A DNA stretch of 33,618 nt from Chrysochromulina tobinii (taxonomy: Eukaryota), in the NCBI GenBank assembly GCA_001275005.1, contig JWZX01003279.1:1-33618 (forward strand). Direction: 5' to 3'. The number at the start of each line of letters is the position of its first letter. The first letter of the stretch is position 1. The position numbers were made by a program, and so were the translations under genes. A model generated the notes under the pieces. The model was given only the letters and a program-made list of their open reading frames with translations. It searched no databases and had not been told where the DNA came from. This document shows positions 9,907 to 29,517 of this stretch, one piece after another.

Positions 9907-12666
9907 ATGGAGGTGCCTCCAGCTGCAAAGGCTGAAGTGCCTGCTGAGGATGGCCAGCAACGCCTTGCGCATGAAGAGCCCGTCGAGGCTTTGCGACTGT
10001 CCAAGGCGCGCGTGGCGAAGGCAAGAGTCGATTCCAGCATCGGCGATGAGGCTGCAGGGCGAGCACGTGCTGAGCTGGCTGCAGCATCCGAAGCTCGCAG
10101 GGCGGATGAGCATCGTGAGCTTGCGCAGCGCAGCACCGATTTACGCCGGCGCACCCGACGACCCGCTCAGCGCACCGACGACGACATCGCAGATGAGGTG
10201 GCTGGCGCTGCACGCATCAGCTTCGCAGCGGCATCGAGGGCTCGGCGTGAGAAGGAGCAACGCGCACTCGCCATCAAGAACGCCGAGTACCACCGGCGTA
10301 TCCGTGAGACGAACGCACGGACCTCGAGTCTGAGAGGAACCGGCAGCAGCGGACCCACACCCGGCACCTCCTCGTCGTTCAACAACATTGATGGCTCAAC
10401 GGTGATCGCCACGCCCACAGTGATGGCGGTCATCCTGCGCGGTCAGCAGCAGGCCCTCGCAGAGGCCAGAGCTGTGGCTGCTGCTACGAGTGCTGAGCTC
10501 GCAAAACGGCGCGTCGCCGCCGAGTCGGGTCTGACGGCTGACCAGCGGCGGATGCGCCGCGCCTTCGTGGGCACGAGCCACGGCTCATCCTCGTCAAATG
10601 CGAACGCACCATCGAACGCACGGAACGAAGGTGAGGACGTTCTGGGCGTGACGAGGACGGGGCGTGACGAGGACGGTGCGGCAACGGCCGGCGACTCAGT
10701 AGAGGCGACCTCAGCGGCGAGTGCTGCGGATGCCATTGCGGCGAAGAGAGTTGAGCAGACGGCCAGCACCGAGGCAGGCACCGCGGCAGGCACCGCAGCC
10801 TCGGGGCTCCAACCCAAGTACCATGGCCGACCCTCAACGGCAGCCACGAGCAAGCTGGAATCGTCTCCCCCGGCTGCCTTCCTGAAGGGGCAGGGCGGCG
10901 GCACCGCGCCCAGAACGACGCCGCCCAGACGAGTGAGCCTACCGGTAAGCCTACCGGCCTCGGCCACGAGGAAGCCGGGCACGGACGCTCGCCACGACGC
11001 TCGCGAGCCGTCGATCAAGGACGATGATGAGTACGAGCCGACCCACATGGCCTATTTGCGCATTACCACTCTCGATCGCAATCGTCCGACGGGCGACCCT
11101 CGCGCACACCCCGCCTGGGACCGTGCCCCGTTCCGGCCGGTGCCCTACGAGCTACGCGGGATCCGGCCGCTCCGTTATATGAACGAGCCTTGGACGGAGG
11201 CGGCGCGCCATGCGTGGGATGAGCAGCCCACACAGCAGCCCACACAGCAGCCCACACAGCAGCCCACCGTCACTCCGGCCTCTTCGGGCGTGCCCGTGCC
11301 AAGCGACGACTCCAACGCCTCGAAAGCCGTCGTGATCGCGGCGGTGGTGCGGCACGCGAAGCCCACACGCACGCTGACCGCATGTGTGACGCCCTCGCGG
11401 GTGCGAGGCGCCGCGTCGCCCTACACGATGCCCTTCGCCACCGCGGGTCTCACGCGCCTCGATGGTGCCCAAGACGGCGGCCCGTCGTACCCAGGCTTGC
11501 ACGACGACATGGCGACACTGCACCGGCGGCGCCAGCTGGAGAACGAAGCGAGCGTCGCGACCGGTCTGCATGCTCAGCCGTGGGACTCGACCACGTGGCA
11601 CTCTGTCCCTACGACGCTGCGCGGTCTCAAGCCGGTGACCCGGGAGCCGTGGGCAACCTCAGACGGCGAGCTGTGCGATATGGAAGCCATCACAATCTTC
11701 CACGACTACGACAAGTTCCGCGCGGGGGACGCGAAGGAAGAAATGCCACAACTGCTTGCACTCAAGCACGCGTCGAGCAGCGCGAACGCCGTCACAGCGG
11801 CGGCGCGCTCTCGGCGACGAACCTCCGATCCGCAGCGTGGACTCCTCGGCACGACTCGCGATGCTCTGCCTCTTGAGGACTCTTCGTCCGCGCTCGTCAT
11901 ACGGGGCAAGCAACCGCCGCTTCCAACCGTGCCGGACGCCGGACGCCGCTTTCAACCGTGGCGTCCGGCGGAGGCAAGTGTCCAGATTTTCGGCCTGTCG
12001 CGCGAGGCCAAAGATGAAGCTGTTCGGAAGGCTGCCAGTGATGTGGCCGCTGATGAGGCCAGTGCCGCCACGGAGATCAAGGCAGCCGCCGAGGCGAAGG
12101 CTGCTGCCCAGGGTAAGGCAGCCGCCGAGGCGAAGGCTGCTGCCCAGGGTAAGGCCGCTGCGGAGGCGAAGGCTGCTGCCCAGGGTAAGGCCGCTGCGGA
12201 GGCGAAGGCTGCTGCCCAGGGTAAGGCACCCGCTGCGGAGGCGAAGGCTGCTGCCCAGGGTAAAGCAGCCTCTGCGGAGGCGAAGGCTTCTGCCCAGGGT
12301 AAGGCCGCTGCGGAGGCGAAGGCTGCTGCAGATGCCAGGGGTGCGGCAGCTCAGCAGGCGGAGGCGGAGGCAGTCGTGACTACTGGTACCGCAGCGGGTC
12401 GGGCGTGGGCGGCGAGGGTCGAGGCTGCAGCGGAGGAAGGTGTGGATGAGTTGGTTGTTGTCGATGAAGGCAACCTGCTGGAGCGTGAGCGGAGCAAGAT
12501 TCAGAGCAAGATCCTGGCTATGCAACAGGAAGACGTGGGGGCAGACGGACCGGCAACGGCATGGGCAACGGGGTCGTCCGAAGCGAAGCCCGCCGTCCGT
12601 CGGGCCTACGAGCACCTGATACCCGCGCTCGACCTCAGTGACAGTGCTCTTTACGCCGACGAGTAA
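9907..12666 (+). CDS. Hypothetical low-complexity protein (~920 aa) with several internal repeat types
   Basis: Long stop-free ORF from ATG 9907 (MEVPPAAK). Contains 49-aa helical repeats, QQPT repeats, a duplicated PWD..VP..LRG..P..EPW motif and AAAEAKAAAQGK repeats. No family recognised. Confidence 0.7.
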   Translation: MEVPPAAKAEVPAEDGQQRLAHEEPVEALRLSKARVAKARVDSSIGDEAAGRARAELAAASEARRADEHRELAQRSTDLRRRTRRPAQRTDDDIADEVAGAARISFAAASRARREKEQRALAIKNAEYHRRIRETNARTSSLRGTGSSGPTPGTSSSFNNIDGSTVIATPTVMAVILRGQQQALAEARAVAAATSAELAKRRVAAESGLTADQRRMRRAFVGTSHGSSSSNANAPSNARNEGEDVLGVTRTGRDEDGAATAGDSVEATSAASAADAIAAKRVEQTASTEAGTAAGTAASGLQPKYHGRPSTAATSKLESSPPAAFLKGQGGGTAPRTTPPRRVSLPVSLPASATRKPGTDARHDAREPSIKDDDEYEPTHMAYLRITTLDRNRPTGDPRAHPAWDRAPFRPVPYELRGIRPLRYMNEPWTEAARHAWDEQPTQQPTQQPTQQPTVTPASSGVPVPSDDSNASKAVVIAAVVRHAKPTRTLTACVTPSRVRGAASPYTMPFATAGLTRLDGAQDGGPSYPGLHDDMATLHRRRQLENEASVATGLHAQPWDSTTWHSVPTTLRGLKPVTREPWATSDGELCDMEAITIFHDYDKFRAGDAKEEMPQLLALKHASSSANAVTAAARSRRRTSDPQRGLLGTTRDALPLEDSSSALVIRGKQPPLPTVPDAGRRFQPWRPAEASVQIFGLSREAKDEAVRKAASDVAADEASAATEIKAAAEAKAAAQGKAAAEAKAAAQGKAAAEAKAAAQGKAAAEAKAAAQGKAPAAEAKAAAQGKAASAEAKASAQGKAAAEAKAAADARGAAAQQAEAEAVVTTGTAAGRAWAARVEAAAEEGVDELVVVDEGNLLERERSKIQSKILAMQQEDVGADGPATAWATGSSEAKPAVRRAYEHLIPALDLSDSALYADE
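12082..12330 (+). repeat. Coding minisatellite, ~36-bp unit (AAAEAKAAAQGK), ~7 copies
   Basis: Repeated gcggaggcgaaggctgctgcccagggtaaggccgct units seen directly. Confidence 0.9.
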
Positions 12667-17798: not shown

Positions 17799-20700
17799 TC
17801 AGACCATGGCCTTCGGGCCGGCGCCCTTCTTGGCAGGCGTCGCCTTTGGCGGTGCCGGCTTAGCTGGCGTGGGCACCGCCTTGGCGCTTGGCTTGGCGCC
17901 CGCCTTGGCGCCCGCCTTGGCCACCGCCGCGGGCTTGCCGCCACCCGCCACGCGGCTCTTGAGCCACTCGATGCAGCTTGTGAAGGCGGTGGCACAGCCT
18001 GGAGGGCACAGGCGGAGGCTGCTCAGCGGCGCTGATGGCGCTGGTGGCGCGCCAGTGCCCTTGGCACCCTTGGCATCGGCCTTGGCGCCACTGGTTGTCG
18101 CCGCCGGCGCCACCTTGGCAGCTGCCGATACGGCGCTCGAGGACTCGCTGGCGCTCGGGATGGCGCTCGCGAACGTGACCATCGGCACCAACGGCCGACC
18201 TCCAACCGCCAATGATCATCTGCAACGCCCGTAGCGCGGCGCACATGAGCAGCGTGGCCGCACATCCCGTAGCCAGTAGTTCTGGAAGCGGGGCAGCCAT
18301 CGCCACGGTACCGGTAAGGGTACCGTTCCCCGCTGGCCCAGCCCCGTGTTCGGAGGCGCCAGGCAGCTGGCCGGTCAGCTGACCGAGCGGCTGACCGAGC
18401 GGCTGACCGAGCGGCACGCCCCAGGCGGCAAGGTAGGCGGCGAGGAGGCACTCGACAGCGGCGAGCGCGGACCAATCAGCGAGCCTCACCGAATCACCAA
18501 GCCACGGAGTGCCATTCGCGCCGCTGCCGTCGCTGCGCGGAGCTGTGAGCGGCAGCAGCGGTCGCGACTGCCGCTGCTGCTGCTGCTGTTGCTGCTGCTG
18601 CGCGCGGCGGCTCCCAAGCAGAGCGCGCGCGATGAGCTGCCGAGCTAGCGTGACGAGCAGCCCGCACGCAGCCATCGCCATCGCCACGTGCAGCGGCCAG
18701 AGCGCTGTGAGCGTCAGCAGCGCCGCCGCCGTCGAGGGCGCCGCCGAGGGCGCCGCCGAGGGCGCCGCCGAGGGCGCCGAGACGAGCAGCGGAGCTCCAA
18801 ATCCGATAAGGGAACCGGAGAGCACGCCCACGCTGACGAACCCGCCGACGAGCGCGAGCATCGAGGCGGCATCGGCGAACGCGTGGCCCGTCGGCGGCAA
18901 TATGAGCTTGCGCACCGCGCCGGTCGACGCAGCCGCCGAGGCCCCCGCGGCATTGGAGGTCGCGCCCACGACGGCGCCCTCCTCTGTGTCGAAGGCAGTG
19001 CTCGTGAGGAGCGCCTCGGGCAGCTGATCGAGTGAGAGACGTGCGTGCGAGTAGGCCCACGGTGCAGCAGTCTCAACGAGCGCGAGCAGATCCCGCACGG
19101 CCGCGTCGCGCACTGCGATCGGATCCGCTGGCTTGGTGCCGCTGGCTTGGCGGGCTACCGCCGCCGGCCCACTCACCTTGGCACCGCCCTTGGCTCCCTT
19201 GGTGGACTCTTGCGAGCGGCATGAGGCCTTGGAGGTATCGGCGGCGACCGCTGCGGCGGCCGGCGCGGCGATCGGCGCCTCAAGGGACATGCCACCGTAA
19301 ATGGCCGCGGCCGCCTCTTCGTCCTCCGCCGCCGCAAACTCATCCAGTGCTTCGTCACTCGGGTCGGCGGAGGCGAGCGCGGGGGTGTACGGGGCGACGG
19401 GCTGCGGCCGCCCGAGAATGAACGGTGCGCCACCGGGCGTCGTGAGCCCACCGTTGCGCCCGCCGTTGCGCTCCTCGGCCTCCGCCTGCCGCCGGATCAC
19501 CCTCTGCAGCTCCTTGTACTCGATGGCACCGCCGCCGTCGCGGTCAAACGACTCGAAGAGCTTATCGACCTCAACATTGGGCACATCGTACCCGAGCAGG
19601 GCGACCGCCTTACGCAGCTCCGGCTTGCGCACCGTGCCGTCACCGTCCACATCCCACTGGCGGAAGAGGTCGAGCACTTTGGCGTGGTTCGCCGCGAGCG
19701 CGAGCCGTATCTCCTGCTGGACGCTGTTGACGCCCCCCACTGCCTGGGCTGCATCGAAGGAGTTCGTGTAGCTGCTCGCCTCGCCGCCCGCGCCGACGGC
19801 ACTGGCACGTGCGTAGGCGCCACCCGCGCCGGCGCGTTTCGGAGCAGCAATCAGGCCGGTCTCTGCCTGCACCGTCGCCACCGCACGCTCCGCCACCGCC
19901 GAGAGCGAGCCAGCCCCTAGGTCCACACTCGCCCGAGACATGTCGGCACTCGCCCGGCCGTTTGCTCGGCGGTCGGGCGACGGTCCGCCTCCGCCCCGTT
20001 TGTCGGCCATGGCGACGCTACCGCCGACGCGCCCAGCGAGCGCGAGCGGCGCACCGGGTGCCCCCTGGGTCACACCCTGGGTCAATCCCTGGGTCAGGGG
20101 CTGCCGCTCAGAGCGCACAGGCATGGGAGTCCAGCCCGTGGGCGCGTACGAGGGCAGCGAGGGCGTTGGCACGATCTCACCGAAGCCATACTGCGCCGCC
20201 AGGGCCTTATGCTCCGGGTCCATGCGGAGCGAATCCGCATCCACAGTATACTCCTCCGGGAGGGGCACACGGAGTGACGGAAGCGACGGCATCGAGCACT
20301 CAGACTGCCTCCGGATACGCGTGATCTTCGAGCGCTTGGGGCCGTCGCGGTTCATGCTGCGGCCCACGTCAGTGGCCGTCGACTCCATCAGCGTGCCATC
20401 GCCCGCATCGCCAGCGGCCGCGCCCACGCTCACGCCGCGCACCGCCCCCCCATCGGACGCGCGCGTCTTCCGCAGCTCGCGCAGGTCGACTCCGCCGTGC
20501 GATCCGGGCTGCGAGAGGTCGAGCGCCGCCGACGAGTAGCCCGCGGGCATCTCGAGAGCCTCGACGTGACCTGAGAGGGCTCTCATCTCCTCCGAGATCT
20601 GCATCTCCTCCGACGTCTGCATCTCCTCCGAGATCTGCATCTCCTCCGACGTCTGCATGCCGCCACCGGCCGCCCCGGCCGCCGCGTCGCCCGCACCCCC

Positions 20701-21684
20701 GGAGCTCGGCGCACCCGCCGCCGCGTCGCCCGCACCCCCGGAGCTCGGCGCACCCGCCGCCGCCGTGGCGGCCGCGAGCGCATCGGGCAGAGGCTCCTCC
20801 GGCTGGCTGGTCTCGTCCTCCCGAAGCGCCATCACGCACGCCGCGAGCGCCCACGCCGAGAGCTCTGACAGAGTCACGAGCCCGTCGCCATCGGCATCGA
20901 TCGCTCCGAGGCCGTCAGCCGGGCGCTCCACGCCCCATTTCTGCAGCTTGCCCGAGTCGGCGAGCAGAGCATCGAACTCGTCCGAAGTGATCGGAACGGC
21001 CGTGGAGGCGAGGTCGAGACGGCCGAGTGCCGAGCGCAGCTCGCAGTGTCGGCGCACGTACACGCTCAGTCTCCAGAAGGCTGCGCGAGACACGCCTTTC
21101 TCTGCCGCCGCCGGTGGCGCACCTTCCGCGCCTTCCTCTGCCGCCGCCGGTGGCGCACCTTCCGCGATTGCCTCTGCCGCCGCCGGTGGCGCACCTTCCG
21201 CGATTGCCTCACCCTCGGCCGGCACCGCATCTGCTGCCGGCGGCTCGGTCGGCGCCGCGGCTCCGCCCACGTCGGCCACGAGCTGAAAGCCCGCCTCCAC
21301 GATGGGCGCCAGGTCGGCGAGCCACTCGGGCTCGGCCACGTCGAGCACTGTCCGCAGCCCAATCTGCGCCTCCTCGAGCGTCAGCACGCCGTCAGCGTTG
21401 GTATCGCATGCCGCAAAGATGGCGTCGCGCGGCGCCTGGCCGGCCGGGCCCATGGGAAGCTTGGCCGCATGCATGAGCCACTGATCCACCGGCTCCTTAG
21501 CGGGCGCAACCTCTGCCGCCGCGCCCATCGGCTCCTTAGCGGGCGCGACCTCTGCCTCCGCGCCTCCTTCGGGCGCTGCTTGGGCATCGACCTTAGGCTC
21601 CGCGCCATCCTCAGGCGCAGGCACGGCCTCGGGAGCTACCTCCGCCTCCGCGGGCTGTGTGTCGGATGGTGGGGCGTCCGCCAT
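17799..21684 (-). CDS. Large EF-hand protein: calflagin/FCaBP-like N-terminal domain, second EF-hand pair, C-terminal hydrophobic helices; apparent frame change near 18190-18215
   Basis: EF loops DTNADGVLTLEE, DADGDGLVTLSE, DVDGDGTVRKPE and DRDGGGAIEYKE. Hydrophobic segments at ~18220-18880. ATG at 21684. The C-terminus looks more protein-like in the second frame (stop 17799) than in the long ORF frame (stop 17860). Confidence 0.78.
20584..20659 (-). repeat. Coding tandem repeat, 18-bp unit (MQ[T/I]SEE x4)
   Basis: ctgcatctcctccga(cg/ga)t repeated; seen directly. Confidence 0.85.
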
Positions 21685-21960: not shown

Positions 21961-22028
21961 CCGAGCAGCAAAGTGCAGGTCACGCAATGAGCTCCGAGCA
22001 GCAAAGTGCAGGTCACGCAATGAGCTCC
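21961..22028. repeat. Perfect 33-bp tandem duplication spanning the F-box gene stop codon
   Basis: ccgagcagcaaagtgcaggtcacgcaatgagct at 21961-21993 and 21994-22026. Confidence 0.95.
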
Positions 22029-23607
22029 ACACTCACGAGGTCATCGAGCATCCGGTTGCGATCGTCAAGGCCGCCGAAGAGCAGGAGCCGCCCGCGATGC
22101 AGCGCAGCGCAGTGACCGGTCCGCACGAGCACCTGCTTCTTCGCCTCCGCTGAGCCTCCCGCCCCTCCGTCCGCGGCGCCCACCGCGGCGCCCTGCGGCG
22201 TCTCCAGCACCGCCTCGATACCATCGGCCCAGTCCGCAGTGGGAGCCAGTGCAGGAGACCTTGCCGTGACGAAATCCGAGGGCGATCCAGTGACGAAATC
22301 CTGGGCTCGTGCGTCGGAATCTTGTGGGCCGTCGCACACGCTCACCACGTGCCAGCGTCGCGTGGTGAGGCTGAATGCATGCAGCTGGGGATCGAAGATG
22401 TTCGACGTGTACTCCCTCCCGCCAAGAACGAGGAGCCTGATTAGGGATGCAATCAGACGTTATCAAGAGGTCATCAGAAGTCATCAGAGGTCATCAGAAG
22501 AAGCCCTCGAAGCAAAGAGACGCACCTCGACCCGACTGCGCAGAGCGTGTGGCCGACCCGAGCGGAGGGGCGCACGCCTCGTGCGCGCACCTTGCGCCAC
22601 GAGGCACTGGCGACGCGAAACTCCCACAGGTCGTCGAACGAGGCCTTGGTCGTGTTACCACCGAAGAGGAACATCGCCGAGCCCCCAAACGCGGAGCACG
22701 CCGAGTGACCAGAGCGCGCCTCGGGACCGTGCCCATCGGCGCAGAGCTGCCTGCGCCACGTGAGGCTCTCAAGGTCGAACCAGTGTAGATCGCCGAAGCA
22801 CTTGCCGGGGGCCGAGCCGCCGAAGACGAGGACACTCGAGCCGATGGCGACGGCCGTATGCGCCCAGCGCGGTGAGGGCCGTACGGGATTGTCGAGGGAG
22901 GCTTGGGCGAGCGGAGGCACCTCGTCGCTCTCCCTCACGCACGCCCACGAGCAATCGAGAGCATCAAACGTCCACGCGTCGTTGAGGAAGGTGACGTCGC
23001 CCCGGCGGCCGGCGAACATGAAGATCTGCGAGCCGACCGCAGTGAGCGTCGCCGACTGCCGCTGCGGGGGGGACGGCGTCCGTGGGTGCACGCGTGTCCA
23101 CGCCGACGCCGACGCTGGCGCCGTCGTGGGCGCTTGTGAACCAGGCCGCGTCAGTGCACTGTGCTGCAGATCGAGGACCCACAGATCATTGAACTCGCGG
23201 TCGTCGCCGTTTGTGCCGCCAAAAATGTAGAGCCGCTGGTCGAGGCAGGTGGCGCGGTGCAAGAAGCGCGCCGGGGGGCAACTGCCCGTCAGCAGCAGCC
23301 TGTTGGGCATGAAGCTCGTGCACGACGAAAGCGCTTGCCAGCGCAAGAACCGACCTTTCCACGTGCCTCGCAAGCGCGACGCGCTTGGCATCAGGCTCGC
23401 GTCGCCAAGCTGCGCAAAAAGTAGCGCTCGCCACAGGCCATCCTCCGTTGCAATTCGATGCAAACGCTGGTTGGTCTGAAGAAGACACCAGAGCGTGCGC
23501 GCATCTTGGTAAGCGAAAATGTGGTAGATGAGGTCATCATTCAGGTCGCTGAGCCCAGCGCCGATTCCGAGTCGGCGCTTCCTGCCCGAGAGGCGCGTGG
23601 CCACCAT
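22013..23607 (-). CDS. F-box/Kelch-repeat protein; exons 23607-22526 and 22436-22013
   Basis: F-box LSDLNDDLIYHIFAYQDARTLWCLLQTNQRLHRIATEDGLWR and Kelch repeats (RLYIFGG, IFMFAG, VLVFGG, MFLFGG). Removing intron 22437-22525 restores AVGSRLLVLGGREY...RTGHCAALHRGRLLLFGG. Confidence 0.9.
22437..22525 (-). other. Repeat-filled GT-AG intron (89 nt), putative introner-like family
   Basis: GTGCGT donor, (C/T)TCTGATGAC tandem units, 3' end TGATTGC-ATCCCTA-ATCAG. Splicing restores a Kelch repeat. Confidence 0.85.
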
Positions 23608-24055: not shown

Positions 24056-25603
24056 ATGAATCCGCACGTGCCGATCGGCGAGCCGCTGCAGCACGGTGCT
24101 CAGGCAATTGCCCAGCCCGTCTACGGGGGTGCACCGCAGATCGCTCAGCCCATCTACGGGGGTGCACCACCGATCGCTCAGCCCGTCTACGGGGGTGCAC
24201 CACCGATCGCTCAGCCCGTCTACACCCAGCCGGTCGCTCAGCCGCAGTTTGCACAGCCTCTTTACGCCCAGCCTCCTCAGTACGCCCAGCCACAATACGC
24301 CCAGCCTCCTCAGTACGCCCAGCCTCAGTACGCCCAGCCTCAATACGCCCAGCCTCCTCAGTACGCCCAGCCGCAAGCGCCACAAATGAACGCCAACGTC
24401 CACGTCGCCACGCCGCAGCCACAGAGAACTATGGATGAGGAGGCGCGCCACGCTGCGGATTGGAAGCGTTGCAAGGAGGAGGAGGAGGAGGTTGCAACCA
24501 CCAAGGCCGCATCGATGAAGAAGCCGCCACCACAGCCAGCTGAAACTCCGCCGCCGCCGGTGATGTCGGCGGAGTCCCGCACGGCCCAGGCCATGGCGTG
24601 CCTCTGGCCCGCCATAGAGCCTTACAACTCCGACTACCTCGAGGTCACCACGGCTAGCGGCACTGTGCACCGCATCTACTACGAGGAGTGCGGCACTCCA
24701 TCAGGCAAGCCCGTGCTATTCGTGCACGGAGGGCCCGGAGCTGGATGCAACGCAAAGCAGCGGCGGTTCCACGACCCTACGCGGCACCGTATCATCCTCT
24801 TTGACCAGCGAGGGTGCGGTCGCTCCACGCCGGACGGCTGCCTCGACGAGAACACCACGTTCGACCTGGTGGCCGACATGGAACGACTGCGCGAGAAGCT
24901 CAGCGTGTCGGCCTGGCAGCTCTTCGGAGGCTCCTGGGGGAGTACCCTCTCGCTCGCGTACGCCGTCTCTCACCCGGCGCGCGTGACGGAGCTCATCCTA
25001 CGAGGCATCTTTTTGGTCAAGCAGAGCGAGCTCGACTTTATCTATCAGAGCGCGACTCCGCAGCTCCATCCGGAGGCGCACGCGGCCATGGCCAATTTCG
25101 TCTCGCCCGAGGAGCGGCACGACCTCGTCTCGGCGTACCGCAAGCGCGTGATGAGCAAGGATCCGGAGCTGGCGCGTGCTGCCGCCAGGCGGTGGGCCGA
25201 ATACGAAGACGCGATCGCGTACCTCTATCCGCAGCCGGTCGAGGCCTGGGAGGGCACGGGCGGTGAACAGCGCGTCCACCTGCACTACATGTGGGCGCGC
25301 GGCTTCTTTGAGTACGACGGATGGCTGCTCGACCAGCTGGGCACCCTCGCACGCGTACCGATCACCATCGTCCACGGCCGCTACGACGTCGTCTGCCCCA
25401 TAGCGTCCGCATACGAGCTCGCTGCGCGTGTGCCGCATGCGACTCTACAAGTGATCCCCGACTCGGGTCATTCGGCGTGGGAGCCAGGGACCACCCGCGC
25501 CCTCGTGGCTGCGGCCGCGGCGGCCCTCGCCGCAGCCTCGTCGACCGCTTCCGCCTCGCCCGACTACGATGGCCAGGAGCCTCTTGCGCAACCTTTGAAT
25601 TGA
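24056..25603 (+). CDS. pip: Proline iminopeptidase (peptidase S33, alpha/beta hydrolase) with Q/P/Y-rich N-terminal repeats
   Basis: HRIYYEECGTPSGKPVLFVHGGPGAG, FDQRGCGRS, nucleophile GGSWGS, ILRGIF, HGRYDVVCP (Asp), SGHSAWEPG (His). ATG at 24056. Confidence 0.92.
   Translation: MNPHVPIGEPLQHGAQAIAQPVYGGAPQIAQPIYGGAPPIAQPVYGGAPPIAQPVYTQPVAQPQFAQPLYAQPPQYAQPQYAQPPQYAQPQYAQPQYAQPPQYAQPQAPQMNANVHVATPQPQRTMDEEARHAADWKRCKEEEEEVATTKAASMKKPPPQPAETPPPPVMSAESRTAQAMACLWPAIEPYNSDYLEVTTASGTVHRIYYEECGTPSGKPVLFVHGGPGAGCNAKQRRFHDPTRHRIILFDQRGCGRSTPDGCLDENTTFDLVADMERLREKLSVSAWQLFGGSWGSTLSLAYAVSHPARVTELILRGIFLVKQSELDFIYQSATPQLHPEAHAAMANFVSPEERHDLVSAYRKRVMSKDPELARAAARRWAEYEDAIAYLYPQPVEAWEGTGGEQRVHLHYMWARGFFEYDGWLLDQLGTLARVPITIVHGRYDVVCPIASAYELAARVPHATLQVIPDSGHSAWEPGTTRALVAAAAAALAAASSTASASPDYDGQEPLAQPLN
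24109..24375 (+). repeat. Coding repeats AQPVYGGAPPI (33 bp, x3) and QYAQP(P) (15/18 bp)
   Basis: Seen directly in the sequence and translation. Confidence 0.9.
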
Positions 25604-25707
25604 GAGGCTCGCTTTGGCGGGAGCCCACAGTTTGAATTGAGAGGCTCGCAGGCTTTGGCGGGATCCCATTTGAATTGAGAGGCTCGCAGGCTTTGGCGGG
25701 AGCCCAC
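25594..25707. repeat. Three ~37-39-bp tandem copies starting at the PIP stop codon
   Basis: tttgaattgagaggctcgc(aggc)tttggcggga(g/t)ccca at 25594, 25631 and 25669. Confidence 0.92.
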
Positions 25708-27455: not shown

Positions 27456-29517
27456 CTAACTGCCGCTCACCTTGCCGCCGCGCCTCTTGCCACCTGGCGT
27501 GCGACCTTTGGGGTGCGGGGGCATCTCAGATCCAGAGGGCCTCTCCAGCTCGGCGAAGAAGTTGGTCTCGACTAAATCGTCGGCGGGGGTGCGCACGGTG
27601 CCACGCATAGGCGAGTGCTCCCGCTCGCTACTCGACCCACCAACTCTGTGATGGACAAGCTCCCACTGCGTCTCGGCCAGCCGCGCGAGGGTGGGAGCAT
27701 CGGGTGCAGCAAGTTGTTGAATGGAGAGTGCTTGCAATCGTTTCATAAGCCCGACGGCCCGCTCGTGAAGTGCAGCCTCGGCCTGTAGGCCAGGCACCTC
27801 TTCGTCTTCGTTGTTTGGCCGGTACGCCTCGTACCTGATCAGGAAAGCAATCATTAGTCATCAGTGGGCATCAGAGGGGCAAGCAGAGTCAACATCAGGG
27901 GCAATCAGGGGCCATCAAGGCCTCGTGCTCGAGGCGGGCTGGCCAACAGGGAAGGCAATCAGTGGTTAATCAGTGGCCATCGGTGGTCTACGGTGGTCAT
28001 CAGTGGTCATCAGCGGGCATCAGAGGCATTCGGGGGCAGTCAAGGCCTCGTACTCAATGCGGGGCGGCTTGCGTCGGCAGGCGTAGTAGAGCATGCTGGG
28101 AAGCGCCATCTTGAGCGCGAGCGCGTCGAGCCGCTGCTCGGGCGAGATCGCGTTGAGATGCCACTCGATGAGCAGGTGTGTGAGCTTGCAGAGGGCGCCC
28201 TCTGCAAGCAAGAAGGGCAGCAGCTGTGCCTCTACGCCTTCCACATCAAGCTTCAAGAAGAGCAGCTCGGGCGCCGGCAGAGCACTCGCCCCTCGGCGCA
28301 CAAAGGCTGCAAGGTCGACTGCGGTCACATTGATCGATTTTCTGGAGCCGAAACGACCGGCCATTCGATTGCTGAGCGAGGACGTCTCTGAGTTGGCACT
28401 GAGGAAGAAGGGCACCTGATGACAGAGGAAATCAGAGGTCATCAGTAGGCCATCAGAGGCAAGTAGAGGCACTCAGAAGCAAGTAGAGGCAATAAGGGAC
28501 CAGTGAAAACAAATAGATGCAATCAGAGGCCATCAGAGGCACTCGGAGGCCATTCGAGGCAATTAGAAGGCGAGGTGCAATACCGTCGAGTCCTCGTTCC
28601 ATGCCACCGCGGGTATGTGCGTCAGCCTCGGTGCAAAGGCGGCCACCAGCTGCCTCAGCGTGGGGAAATACTTCTCCTGCGGCTCGAACATGTAGGCCCT
28701 GGTGAGGCAGTGCGGCGCCTCACGATGCATGAGCTTGAGCATCCCTTCGGACCACAAACCTGATGAAGGAGGCAATCGATGGCCATCAGCGGCAATCAGC
28801 TTGAGCATCCCTTTGGACCACAAACCTGATGGCAATCGATGGCCATCAGCGGCAATCCAGTCGAAATGAGCGGCAATCAGTCGTAATCAGGGTTGTTAGC
28901 TTGAGCATCTGCTTGGCCCACAGACCGTTGTTGGCGCCCACGTCGATAATCAGCACGCGACGCTGAACCCTCGCCAACTGCGCGAAGGCCTTGGCCAGCG
29001 TACTTTCCACCTGGTGGCTTGGGTCGTCGTGATCATCATCATCATCATCGTAGGCTGTCGTCCCGTTCTTGAGCTTCTCAAGCTCAGCCTTAGCTGACAG
29101 AAAACCTGTGGGGTGTTGGATCAATGCGCCCAGATTGCATGCGTGGTACCTGCATGCAATGAGGAAGGTCATCAGAGGCGATCAGAGGCGATCAGAGGCA
29201 ATTAGAGGCGATCAGAGGCAATCAACGTACCACGAGCAGTCTTTCCACTTGATGGACACTGACACGTACCGGCAGCGCTCGCAGCTGGCGCAGTGGTGCG
29301 CGCAGTAGGAGAAAGCCGCGTCCCACGATGCCCGGTGCCTATGCGGCAACGTAAAGGTGCCTTTCAGGCCGACCTTGCAGTTGCCCTTCACACCCTCGAC
29401 GGTGGTTTCGCAGAACCCGGAGCGTCTGGAGCGAGACATGGTGCCTGCATGCAATGAGGGACGTGTTGTCTTGTTGGGCTGCCCTGCGCCGAGTACGATG
29501 GCGATGCCAGGCCACAT
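27456..29517 (-). CDS. FkbM-family SAM-dependent methyltransferase with N-terminal Cys-rich module; exons 29517-29231, 29149-28926, 28759-28584, 28415-28054, 27834-27456
   Basis: Five ORF-track fragments join in phase via four GT-AG introns: ...KDCSW|YHACN...IIDVGANNG|LWSEG...MFEPQ...AWNEDST|VPFF...FLKLDVEGVE...LLIEWH...RIE|YEAYRP. DVGANxG, FEP, LKxDVEG and IEWH are FkbM motifs. The start is uncertain. Confidence 0.87.
27835..28053 (-). other. Repeat-filled intron (219 nt) with 9-bp duplication GTACGAGGC at its 5' end and at the start of the next exon
   Basis: + strand gcctcgtac at 28045-28053 and 27826-27834; 3' end TGATTGC-TTTCCTG-ATCAG. Confidence 0.85.
28416..28583 (-). other. Repeat-filled intron (168 nt)
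   Basis: GTATTG donor, GCCTCTGATG/GCCTCTACTT units, 3' end TGATTTC-CTCTGTC-ATCAG|GT; phase-0 join. Confidence 0.83.
28760..28925 (-). other. Repeat-filled intron (166 nt) containing two copies of the first 28 nt of the downstream exon; alternative in-frame acceptor at 28826
   Basis: 28-nt copies at 28898-28925, 28798-28825 and 28732-28759 (the last is exonic); 3' end CGATTGC-CTCCTTC-ATCAG. Confidence 0.8.
29150..29230 (-). other. Repeat-filled intron (81 nt), nearly pure GCCTCTGATC/T decamer array
   Basis: TG|GTACGTTGATT(GCCTCTRAT(C/T/G))x5...CCTCATTGCATGCAG|GTACC; GTAC occurs at both the intron start and the exon start. Confidence 0.87.

Follow-up and report, generated by a model that had tools for sequence, protein, structure and literature searches.

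Gene structure and predicted product

The window analysed here is a 33,618-nt stretch of the Chrysochromulina tobinii contig JWZX01003279.1 (positions 1 to 33,618) and harbors, on its minus strand, an FkbM-like methyltransferase gene made of five exons and four GT-AG introns, as delineated by RNA contigs. The haptophyte lineage of Chrysochromulina is also indicated by the product of an intron-less neighbouring gene, which clusters at 90% with a protein labelled Chrysochromulina parva. The joined exons of the FkbM-like gene yield an open reading frame of 475 amino acids from a putative start codon. This codon lies in exon 1 (29231..29517), which also contains a second ATG at 29439 and is followed by intron 1 (29150..29230; 81 nt). 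Exon 2 (28926..29149), supported by RNA contigs, ends in the SAM-binding motif I (DVGANNG), whose last Gly codon is split by intron 2 (28760..28925; 166 nt, GT-AG, phase 1). Exon 3 (28584..28759) extends to the EPQ and AW motifs and is separated by intron 3 (28416..28583; 168 nt) from exon 4 (28054..28415), which encodes the C-terminal half of the FkbM domain. Intron 4 (27835..28053; 219 nt) then leads to exon 5 (27456..27834), which runs to the stop codon.

Four of the six RNA runs found were examined, as contigs, which drop rare forms, and at a depth of about 3. The joints of introns 1 and 3 were each recovered in 3/4 runs, that of intron 2 in 2/4 (X15 and X18) and that of intron 4 in 1/4.

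The protein shares with the FkbM family (PF05050) the D-x-G-A-N-x-G of motif I, E-P-Q and K-L-D-V-E-G, and methyl transfer is its predicted activity. It departs from FkbM methyltransferases in that exon 4 alone reaches 19.6 bits against PF05050 (E=0.001), under the curated cut-off of 22.7 bits. A search with exon 4 returned 367 relatives, and the 15 that were tested all pass this cut-off; on a profile made from 98 of the exon-4 relatives, the spliced 475-aa protein reaches 234 bits. A separate search with exon 4 for longer proteins found none, and protein searches turned up no spliced full-length protein, whether in the 475-aa form or as the 497-aa isoform discussed below.

Within exon 1, a 26-nt copy of the intron 1 acceptor (88% identity) occupies positions 29439-29464 on the minus strand, just before the second ATG. 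As X16 and X17 both contain RNA pieces that pass through this copy without splicing, it may be a fossil acceptor, and the position of the start codon is uncertain.

Three copies of the exon 3 start

Three 28-nt segments of the minus strand, namely copy 1 (28925-28898), copy 2 (28825-28798) and copy 3 (28759-28732), are identical at 22/28 (1 versus 3), 27/28 (2 versus 3) and 23/28 (1 versus 2) positions. A first-pass annotation of the window had listed these sequences together with the first two identities, and both were retrieved unchanged. Copy 3 is the coding start of exon 3 (LWSEGMLKL) and is matched by spliced RNA contigs with no extra letters; copy 2 is intronic in the observed splice form; copy 1 is a decayed copy of the exon 3 start and the source of the donor GT. 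Copies 1 and 3 form a direct repeat in exact register with both splice sites, and their 22/28 identity was reached by none of 194,810 random pairs of GT-starting 28-mers drawn from the window (maximum 21). All differences between them fall in the first 16 nt, the last 12-14 nt being identical.

A metagenome scan covering 40 of 64 parts gave at least three further loci (L001, L002 and L003). Over the gene, L001 and L002 do not differ from the window and may represent the same strain, while L003 is a diverged haplotype of the gene. Since the three copies are present in all three assemblies, including the diverged one, the triplication is not an assembly artefact.

The first-pass annotation had also stated that all three copies read GLW, which holds for the haplotype of the window and fails elsewhere, where copy 1 has GQW in place of GLW (donor GTCAGT): L003 has it, as do 8 of the 15 same-lineage ORFs listed (out of 19) and 7/7 ORFs of a sister lineage. 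Because of this distribution, the L of copy 1 in the window (donor GTCTGT) is probably derived. At the positions equivalent to 28922 and 28767 of the window, L003 has the donor GTCAGT and a used acceptor whose pyrimidine tract is one pyrimidine shorter; both splice signals of intron 2 hence vary in natural populations.

In X15 and X18, exon 2 is directly joined to copy 3 (28925->28760; RNA contig joint 28757->28924), a 166-nt GT-AG joint that identifies intron 2 as spliceosomal. The proposal that the triplicated segment created the intron donor stands, the donor GT being formed by the first two bases of copy 1. Exon 2 ends in AACG rather than AG and the acceptor lies in repeat filler, so the acceptor AG does not stem from the duplicated exon.

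Unspliced pieces were also recovered, one in X16 spanning 28582-28921 and one in X15 across the intron 2 donor; among the contigs listed for X17, no piece crosses intron 2. The X16 contig retains intron 2 and breaks off at the donor of intron 3, where 8 letters are left unplaced. It looks like partly spliced RNA retaining intron 2, although it could also come from DNA.

A younger duplication of the acceptor region

Pairwise alignment reveals two units between copy 1 and the body of exon 3. The downstream unit (28732..28797; 66 nt) consists of the 38-nt region of the used acceptor (AG 28761-28760) and copy 3, whereas the upstream unit (28798..28857; 60 nt) consists of a 32-nt acceptor region, shortened by 6 nt of pyrimidine tract, and copy 2. 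The first-pass annotation had described a younger 66-nt duplication of the acceptor region; its relative age is upheld by the comparison below, and its size is corrected to units of 60 + 66 nt.

The sister lineage compared (the P0212 cluster, with 77% identity to the query) is known from read-through ORFs, which come from gene callers that ignore introns and provide evidence as peptides, not DNA. In 7/7 sister ORFs, exon 2 continues into GQWFKQMLKL (copy 1) and then filler, after which the exon copy appears only once, in a shifted frame; copy 2, like the whole upstream unit, is absent. The implied sister intron measures 107 nt in five ORFs and 92 nt in two, while the window intron minus the upstream unit measures 106 nt (166 - 60). 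Because the sister has copies 1 and 3 only, these peptides place copy 1 before the split of the two lineages and the 66-nt duplication after it, so that the copy 1/copy 3 pair is the older of the two. The sister may instead have lost copy 2, but this is the less simple account because copies 2 and 3 match at 27/28 positions. The sister acceptor, as read from peptides, appears to retain a run rich in pyrimidines ahead of its CAG (PLHQ or SLNQ in translation), and the upstream unit lacking its tract would therefore be the derived one. An exon 3 ORF from a 665-nt contig (P0259) has window-like exon 3 residues, starts from the Met of copy 3 and has an end resembling that of the sister; judging by these residues, it possibly represents an intermediate lineage without copy 2.

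Copies 1 and 3 appear to have been closer in the ancestor than today. At the third codon of copy 1, the F of the sister and the A of the window each differ by one change from the codon for S in copy 3, and one of eight copy-3 variants carries the K found in copy 2, so that five ancestral differences would remain. Four of these five lie in two CAG triplets of copy 1 that the coding copy lacks (hypergeometric p = 0.005, post hoc); both triplets would be frame-shifting acceptors. Donor sites follow the consensus GTRAGT, and the first CAG difference could instead reflect drift of copy 1 towards it. The suggestion that FkbM orthologues would reveal which copy is nearest to the ancestral sequence was not borne out: residue counts among 98 homologues gave no direction (Q 7 versus L 1, S 56 versus A 9, K 7 versus E 8, Q 10 versus G 8) and scores on the family profile were equal (234.4 versus 234.2).

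Both duplications end at the same base. Resemblance of the exon to the filler repeat could make this shared endpoint a slippage hot spot; alternatively, copy 2 could be the product of an unequal crossover between copies 1 and 3, at their identical ends, with a later contraction. A 66-nt duplication is not a rare event here, since ten arrays in the window have a period of 33 nt or more.

Repeat filler in the four introns

The segment between copy 1 and the upstream acceptor (28826..28897, minus strand) is decamer-repeat filler ending in the AG at 28827-28826. The same repeat family occurs in all four introns of the gene and in one intron of a neighbouring gene. All four introns are followed by GT, and the exact repeat between the intron start and the start of the next exon amounts to 4 nt for intron 1 (with exon 2), 2 nt for intron 2 (22/28 when mismatches are allowed), 2 nt for intron 3 (only the GT, with exon 4) and 9 nt for intron 4 (with exon 5). 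The 9-nt exact copy of the exon 5 start is in register (chance 1.2e-4 per GT pair); no significant exon copy was detected at the start of introns 1 and 3 or of the filler intron of the neighbouring gene. The latter is a predicted decamer-filler intron in a kelch-like gene (22437-22524, minus strand), with AG|G on both sides.

Intron 4 further contains a 51-nt copy (80% identity) of its own donor region, covering the end of exon 4 and the intron start (27893-27943 versus 28018-28068, minus strand). In this copy, the donor GT reads GC, the mirror image of the intron 2 case.

No inverted pair was found at the ends of the four introns; RNA folding of the intron region did not exceed that of shuffled sequences (z = -0.08), and no Rfam match was returned. 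Among 150 homologues searched for peptides derived from filler, the sister's own exon-4 ORF was the only one flagged. Filler-pattern scans of viral contigs gave 1, 0, 2 and 0 matches, all three of which, on inspection, showed neither filler arrays nor Chrysochromulina-like DNA and were attributed to chance; the eight matches in prokaryote genomes were set aside on their record titles. Many other RNA contigs stack on the filler, with a summed depth of up to about 1,000, in mixed cultures.

Origin of intron 2

We propose, with a probability of about 0.6, that intron 2 was born as decamer filler carrying its own acceptor between two 28-29-nt exon copies, and that the acceptor region was later copied in tandem by the 66-nt duplication, leaving what is likely an unused spare. 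Repair of a staggered break, or a target-site-like duplication, would first have copied the G|GT... stretch and separated the two exon copies by about 70-80 nt of filler with CATCAG at its end. Joining the GT of copy 1 to the AG of the filler by splicing, as observed for the present intron, would restore the reading frame exactly. After the lineage split, slippage or unequal crossover would have duplicated 38 nt of acceptor region and 28 nt of exon; the upstream acceptor would then have lost 6 nt of its pyrimidine tract, the downstream acceptor being used to produce the 475-aa protein.

The first-pass annotation had likewise described an intron born by exon duplication plus repeat filler. Splicing and the derivation of the donor from copy 1 agree with this account, but the birth itself is only likely, because no intron-less orthologue or allele was found among the three loci (40/64 metagenome parts) or the 22 listed exon-2 ORFs. 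The 98 homologues that read through the intron position share about 50% identity and may stem from transcripts, which makes them uninformative on intron absence. A single insertion taken alone also leaves unexplained why both duplications end at a common base.

The common end base is accommodated by the main rival, which we consider unlikely overall: the intron position would be old and its sequence new, the acceptor of an older intron and 28 nt of exon having been duplicated, after which a precise loss of the first unit would have left copy 1 at the donor. If the first 100 nt of intron 2 are taken away, the order that remains is indeed exon 2, copy 2, filler, AG and copy 3, which is the anatomy of the sister intron. 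Duplications spanning a splice site recur in this gene, as in intron 4, and an acceptor-spanning duplication created a new intron in potato, according to the part of PMC4974935 covered here. This history, however, requires an additional and precise loss, from the donor to the first acceptor; moreover, the portion of PMC4974935 concerned describes the upstream exon copy of potato as partly exonic, with a cryptic site inside the copy as donor and not its first base.

Less probable still is that an old intron had its 5' end overwritten with exon 3 sequence by templated repair or conversion, in which case copy 1 would be uninformative on the birth of the intron. The intron-less state was not seen among the loci and ORFs compared, and the concentration of differences in the first 16 nt of copy 1, next to an identical stretch of 12-14 nt, is the pattern expected of partial conversion. 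Against such overwriting, the copy begins exactly at the first base of the intron and the first base of the exon, and intron 4 displays the same register over 9 nt.

The upstream acceptor

A separate question is whether the upstream acceptor at 28826 is functional. The first-pass annotation had presented it as an alternative in-frame acceptor, and its account of the coding consequence is correct: use of 28826 adds 66 nt, that is 22 stop-free codons just after DVGANNG, giving 497 instead of 475 amino acids. We nevertheless consider it very unlikely that 28826 works as an alternative acceptor producing a 497-aa isoform with 22 residues inserted after the SAM-binding motif I. The extension stays open in 8/8 ORFs of its cluster (a cluster defined by having it), and the family allows a variable length between motif I and EPQ, namely 12-39 residues, most commonly 23-25, in 96 of 98 homologues. 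The used form has a spacing of 23, whereas the 45 of the long form exceeds that of every one of the 96 homologues, although the penalty on the family profile is only 4.4 bits (229.8 versus 234.2 bits). The junction comparison proposed earlier favors 28760, seen in 2/4 runs, over the 100-nt skip to copy 2 (28925->28826), seen in 0/4 among the contigs listed, at a depth of about 3, low enough to miss a minor form. The upstream acceptor also lacks 6 nt of pyrimidine tract, with 9 pyrimidines out of 15 against 11 in the used acceptor, and the extension is missing from the sister lineage. The acceptor at 28826 is therefore likely an unused spare.

That an artefact or an unspliced pseudogene explains the locus, as the unspliced RNA pieces of X15 and X16 might suggest, has a negligible probability in view of the three copies in 3/3 other assemblies, the splicing of all four introns at GT-AG sites in RNA contigs and the open 475-aa frame.

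Comparison with known intron-gain systems

Intron 2 resembles an insertion with a long direct repeat, as in Daphnia or in Introner target-site co-option, more closely than the classic AGGT tandem duplication. The mechanism is of a known type, with an unusually long repeat of 28 nt. The comparisons below draw on parts of the cited sources.

In Daphnia pulex, neointrons attributed to staggered breaks show exon-intron repeats of 4-12 bp (33 cases) and later internal repeats (PMC4202315), whereas the repeat of intron 2 reaches 28-29 nt. Unlike the Daphnia neointrons described there, the introns of the window share a common decamer filler, and intron-less alleles, which exist in Daphnia, were not found for the window gene (PMC4202315).

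Some Introners bring an acceptor and obtain their donor from a short target-site duplication (examples of 3-9 bp; PMC9860276), and intron 2 is similar in that the insert supplies the acceptor and the duplicated target the donor. The Introner family of a marine Chrysochromulina shows the reverse arrangement, carrying the 5' site, with a 4 bp duplication (PMC9860276). The two systems differ in that Introners have a fixed duplication length per family and alignable copies, while the repeats of the window gene measure 2, 4, 9 and 28 nt and its fillers are decayed tandem arrays without inverted ends (PMC9860276). With exact repeats of 4, 2, 2 and 9 nt and no inverted pair, neither the fixed-length target-site duplication nor the terminal inverted repeats of an Introner were found. 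C. tobinii and C. parva belong to the genome list of PMC9860276 and, in the part of its supplement covered, "tobin" occurs only in that list.

In the AGGT model of Rogers, the duplicated exon segment holds both AG and GT (PMC3443670). As in intron 2, a duplicated exon segment provides a splice site and the coding sequence is precisely restored; in contrast, the duplicated segment of the window has no AG before its GT and the intron consists mostly of filler, not exon (PMC3443670). An AGGT tandem duplication was consequently rejected, exon 2 ending in AACG and the acceptor lying in filler.

The younger event parallels the potato RdRp gene, where a tandem duplication spanning an acceptor gained an intron (PMC4974935). 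In both, the duplication took in an intron's 3' end together with the beginning of the following exon, but the outcome was a new intron and exon in potato and a spare acceptor within an existing intron here (PMC4974935).

The sections of the C. tobin genome paper covered mention introns once, at about one per gene (PMC4580454). Replitrons, mentioned once for C. tobinii in the part of PMC10288648 covered, were dropped as candidates, with no link to these introns. A full-text search, with most subscription papers and bioRxiv supplements beyond its reach, found no literature on these decamer-filler introns.

A possible class of decamer-filler introns

It is, to our knowledge, not known where most new spliceosomal introns originate, and few cases have a history that is legible in the sequence. 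Intron 2 preserves a long repeat derived from an exon, a later duplication whose place in time is fixed by a sister lineage, and a spare acceptor that has decayed. Taken as one locus, it illustrates known processes for teaching, and its greater value is as a lead.

Tentatively, and with the odds against it, the decamer-filler introns of freshwater Chrysochromulina might form a genome-wide class generated by one repair- or retro-type process, in which a decamer array with a ready acceptor is inserted and 2-29 nt of exon are duplicated to provide the donor, duplications spanning splice sites then renewing the introns and selection removing competing splice signals. In intron 2, the two CAG triplets missing from the coding copy, with four of the five ancestral differences, would be a case of such removal. 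Hints of such a class are the exon copies in 2/4 introns of the gene and the many RNA contigs that stack on filler. If true, such a class would amount to an intron factory of another kind than Introners with their fixed duplications. Should in-register exon copies of variable length prove common in the decamer-filler introns of this alga, a new route of intron gain would become directly testable with a public genome and RNA-seq.

The FkbM-like gene accommodates four filler introns in 1.4 kb, whereas most of its neighbours between positions 1 and 27000 of the window look intron-less, including two that cluster mates identify as eIF3e and THO subunit 3. The window also contains many young tandem duplications with sizes of 33-48 nt, most of them coding, at 12079-12329, 20584-20763, 21100-21210, 21486-21564, 21961-22028, 24113-24376 and 25594-25706.
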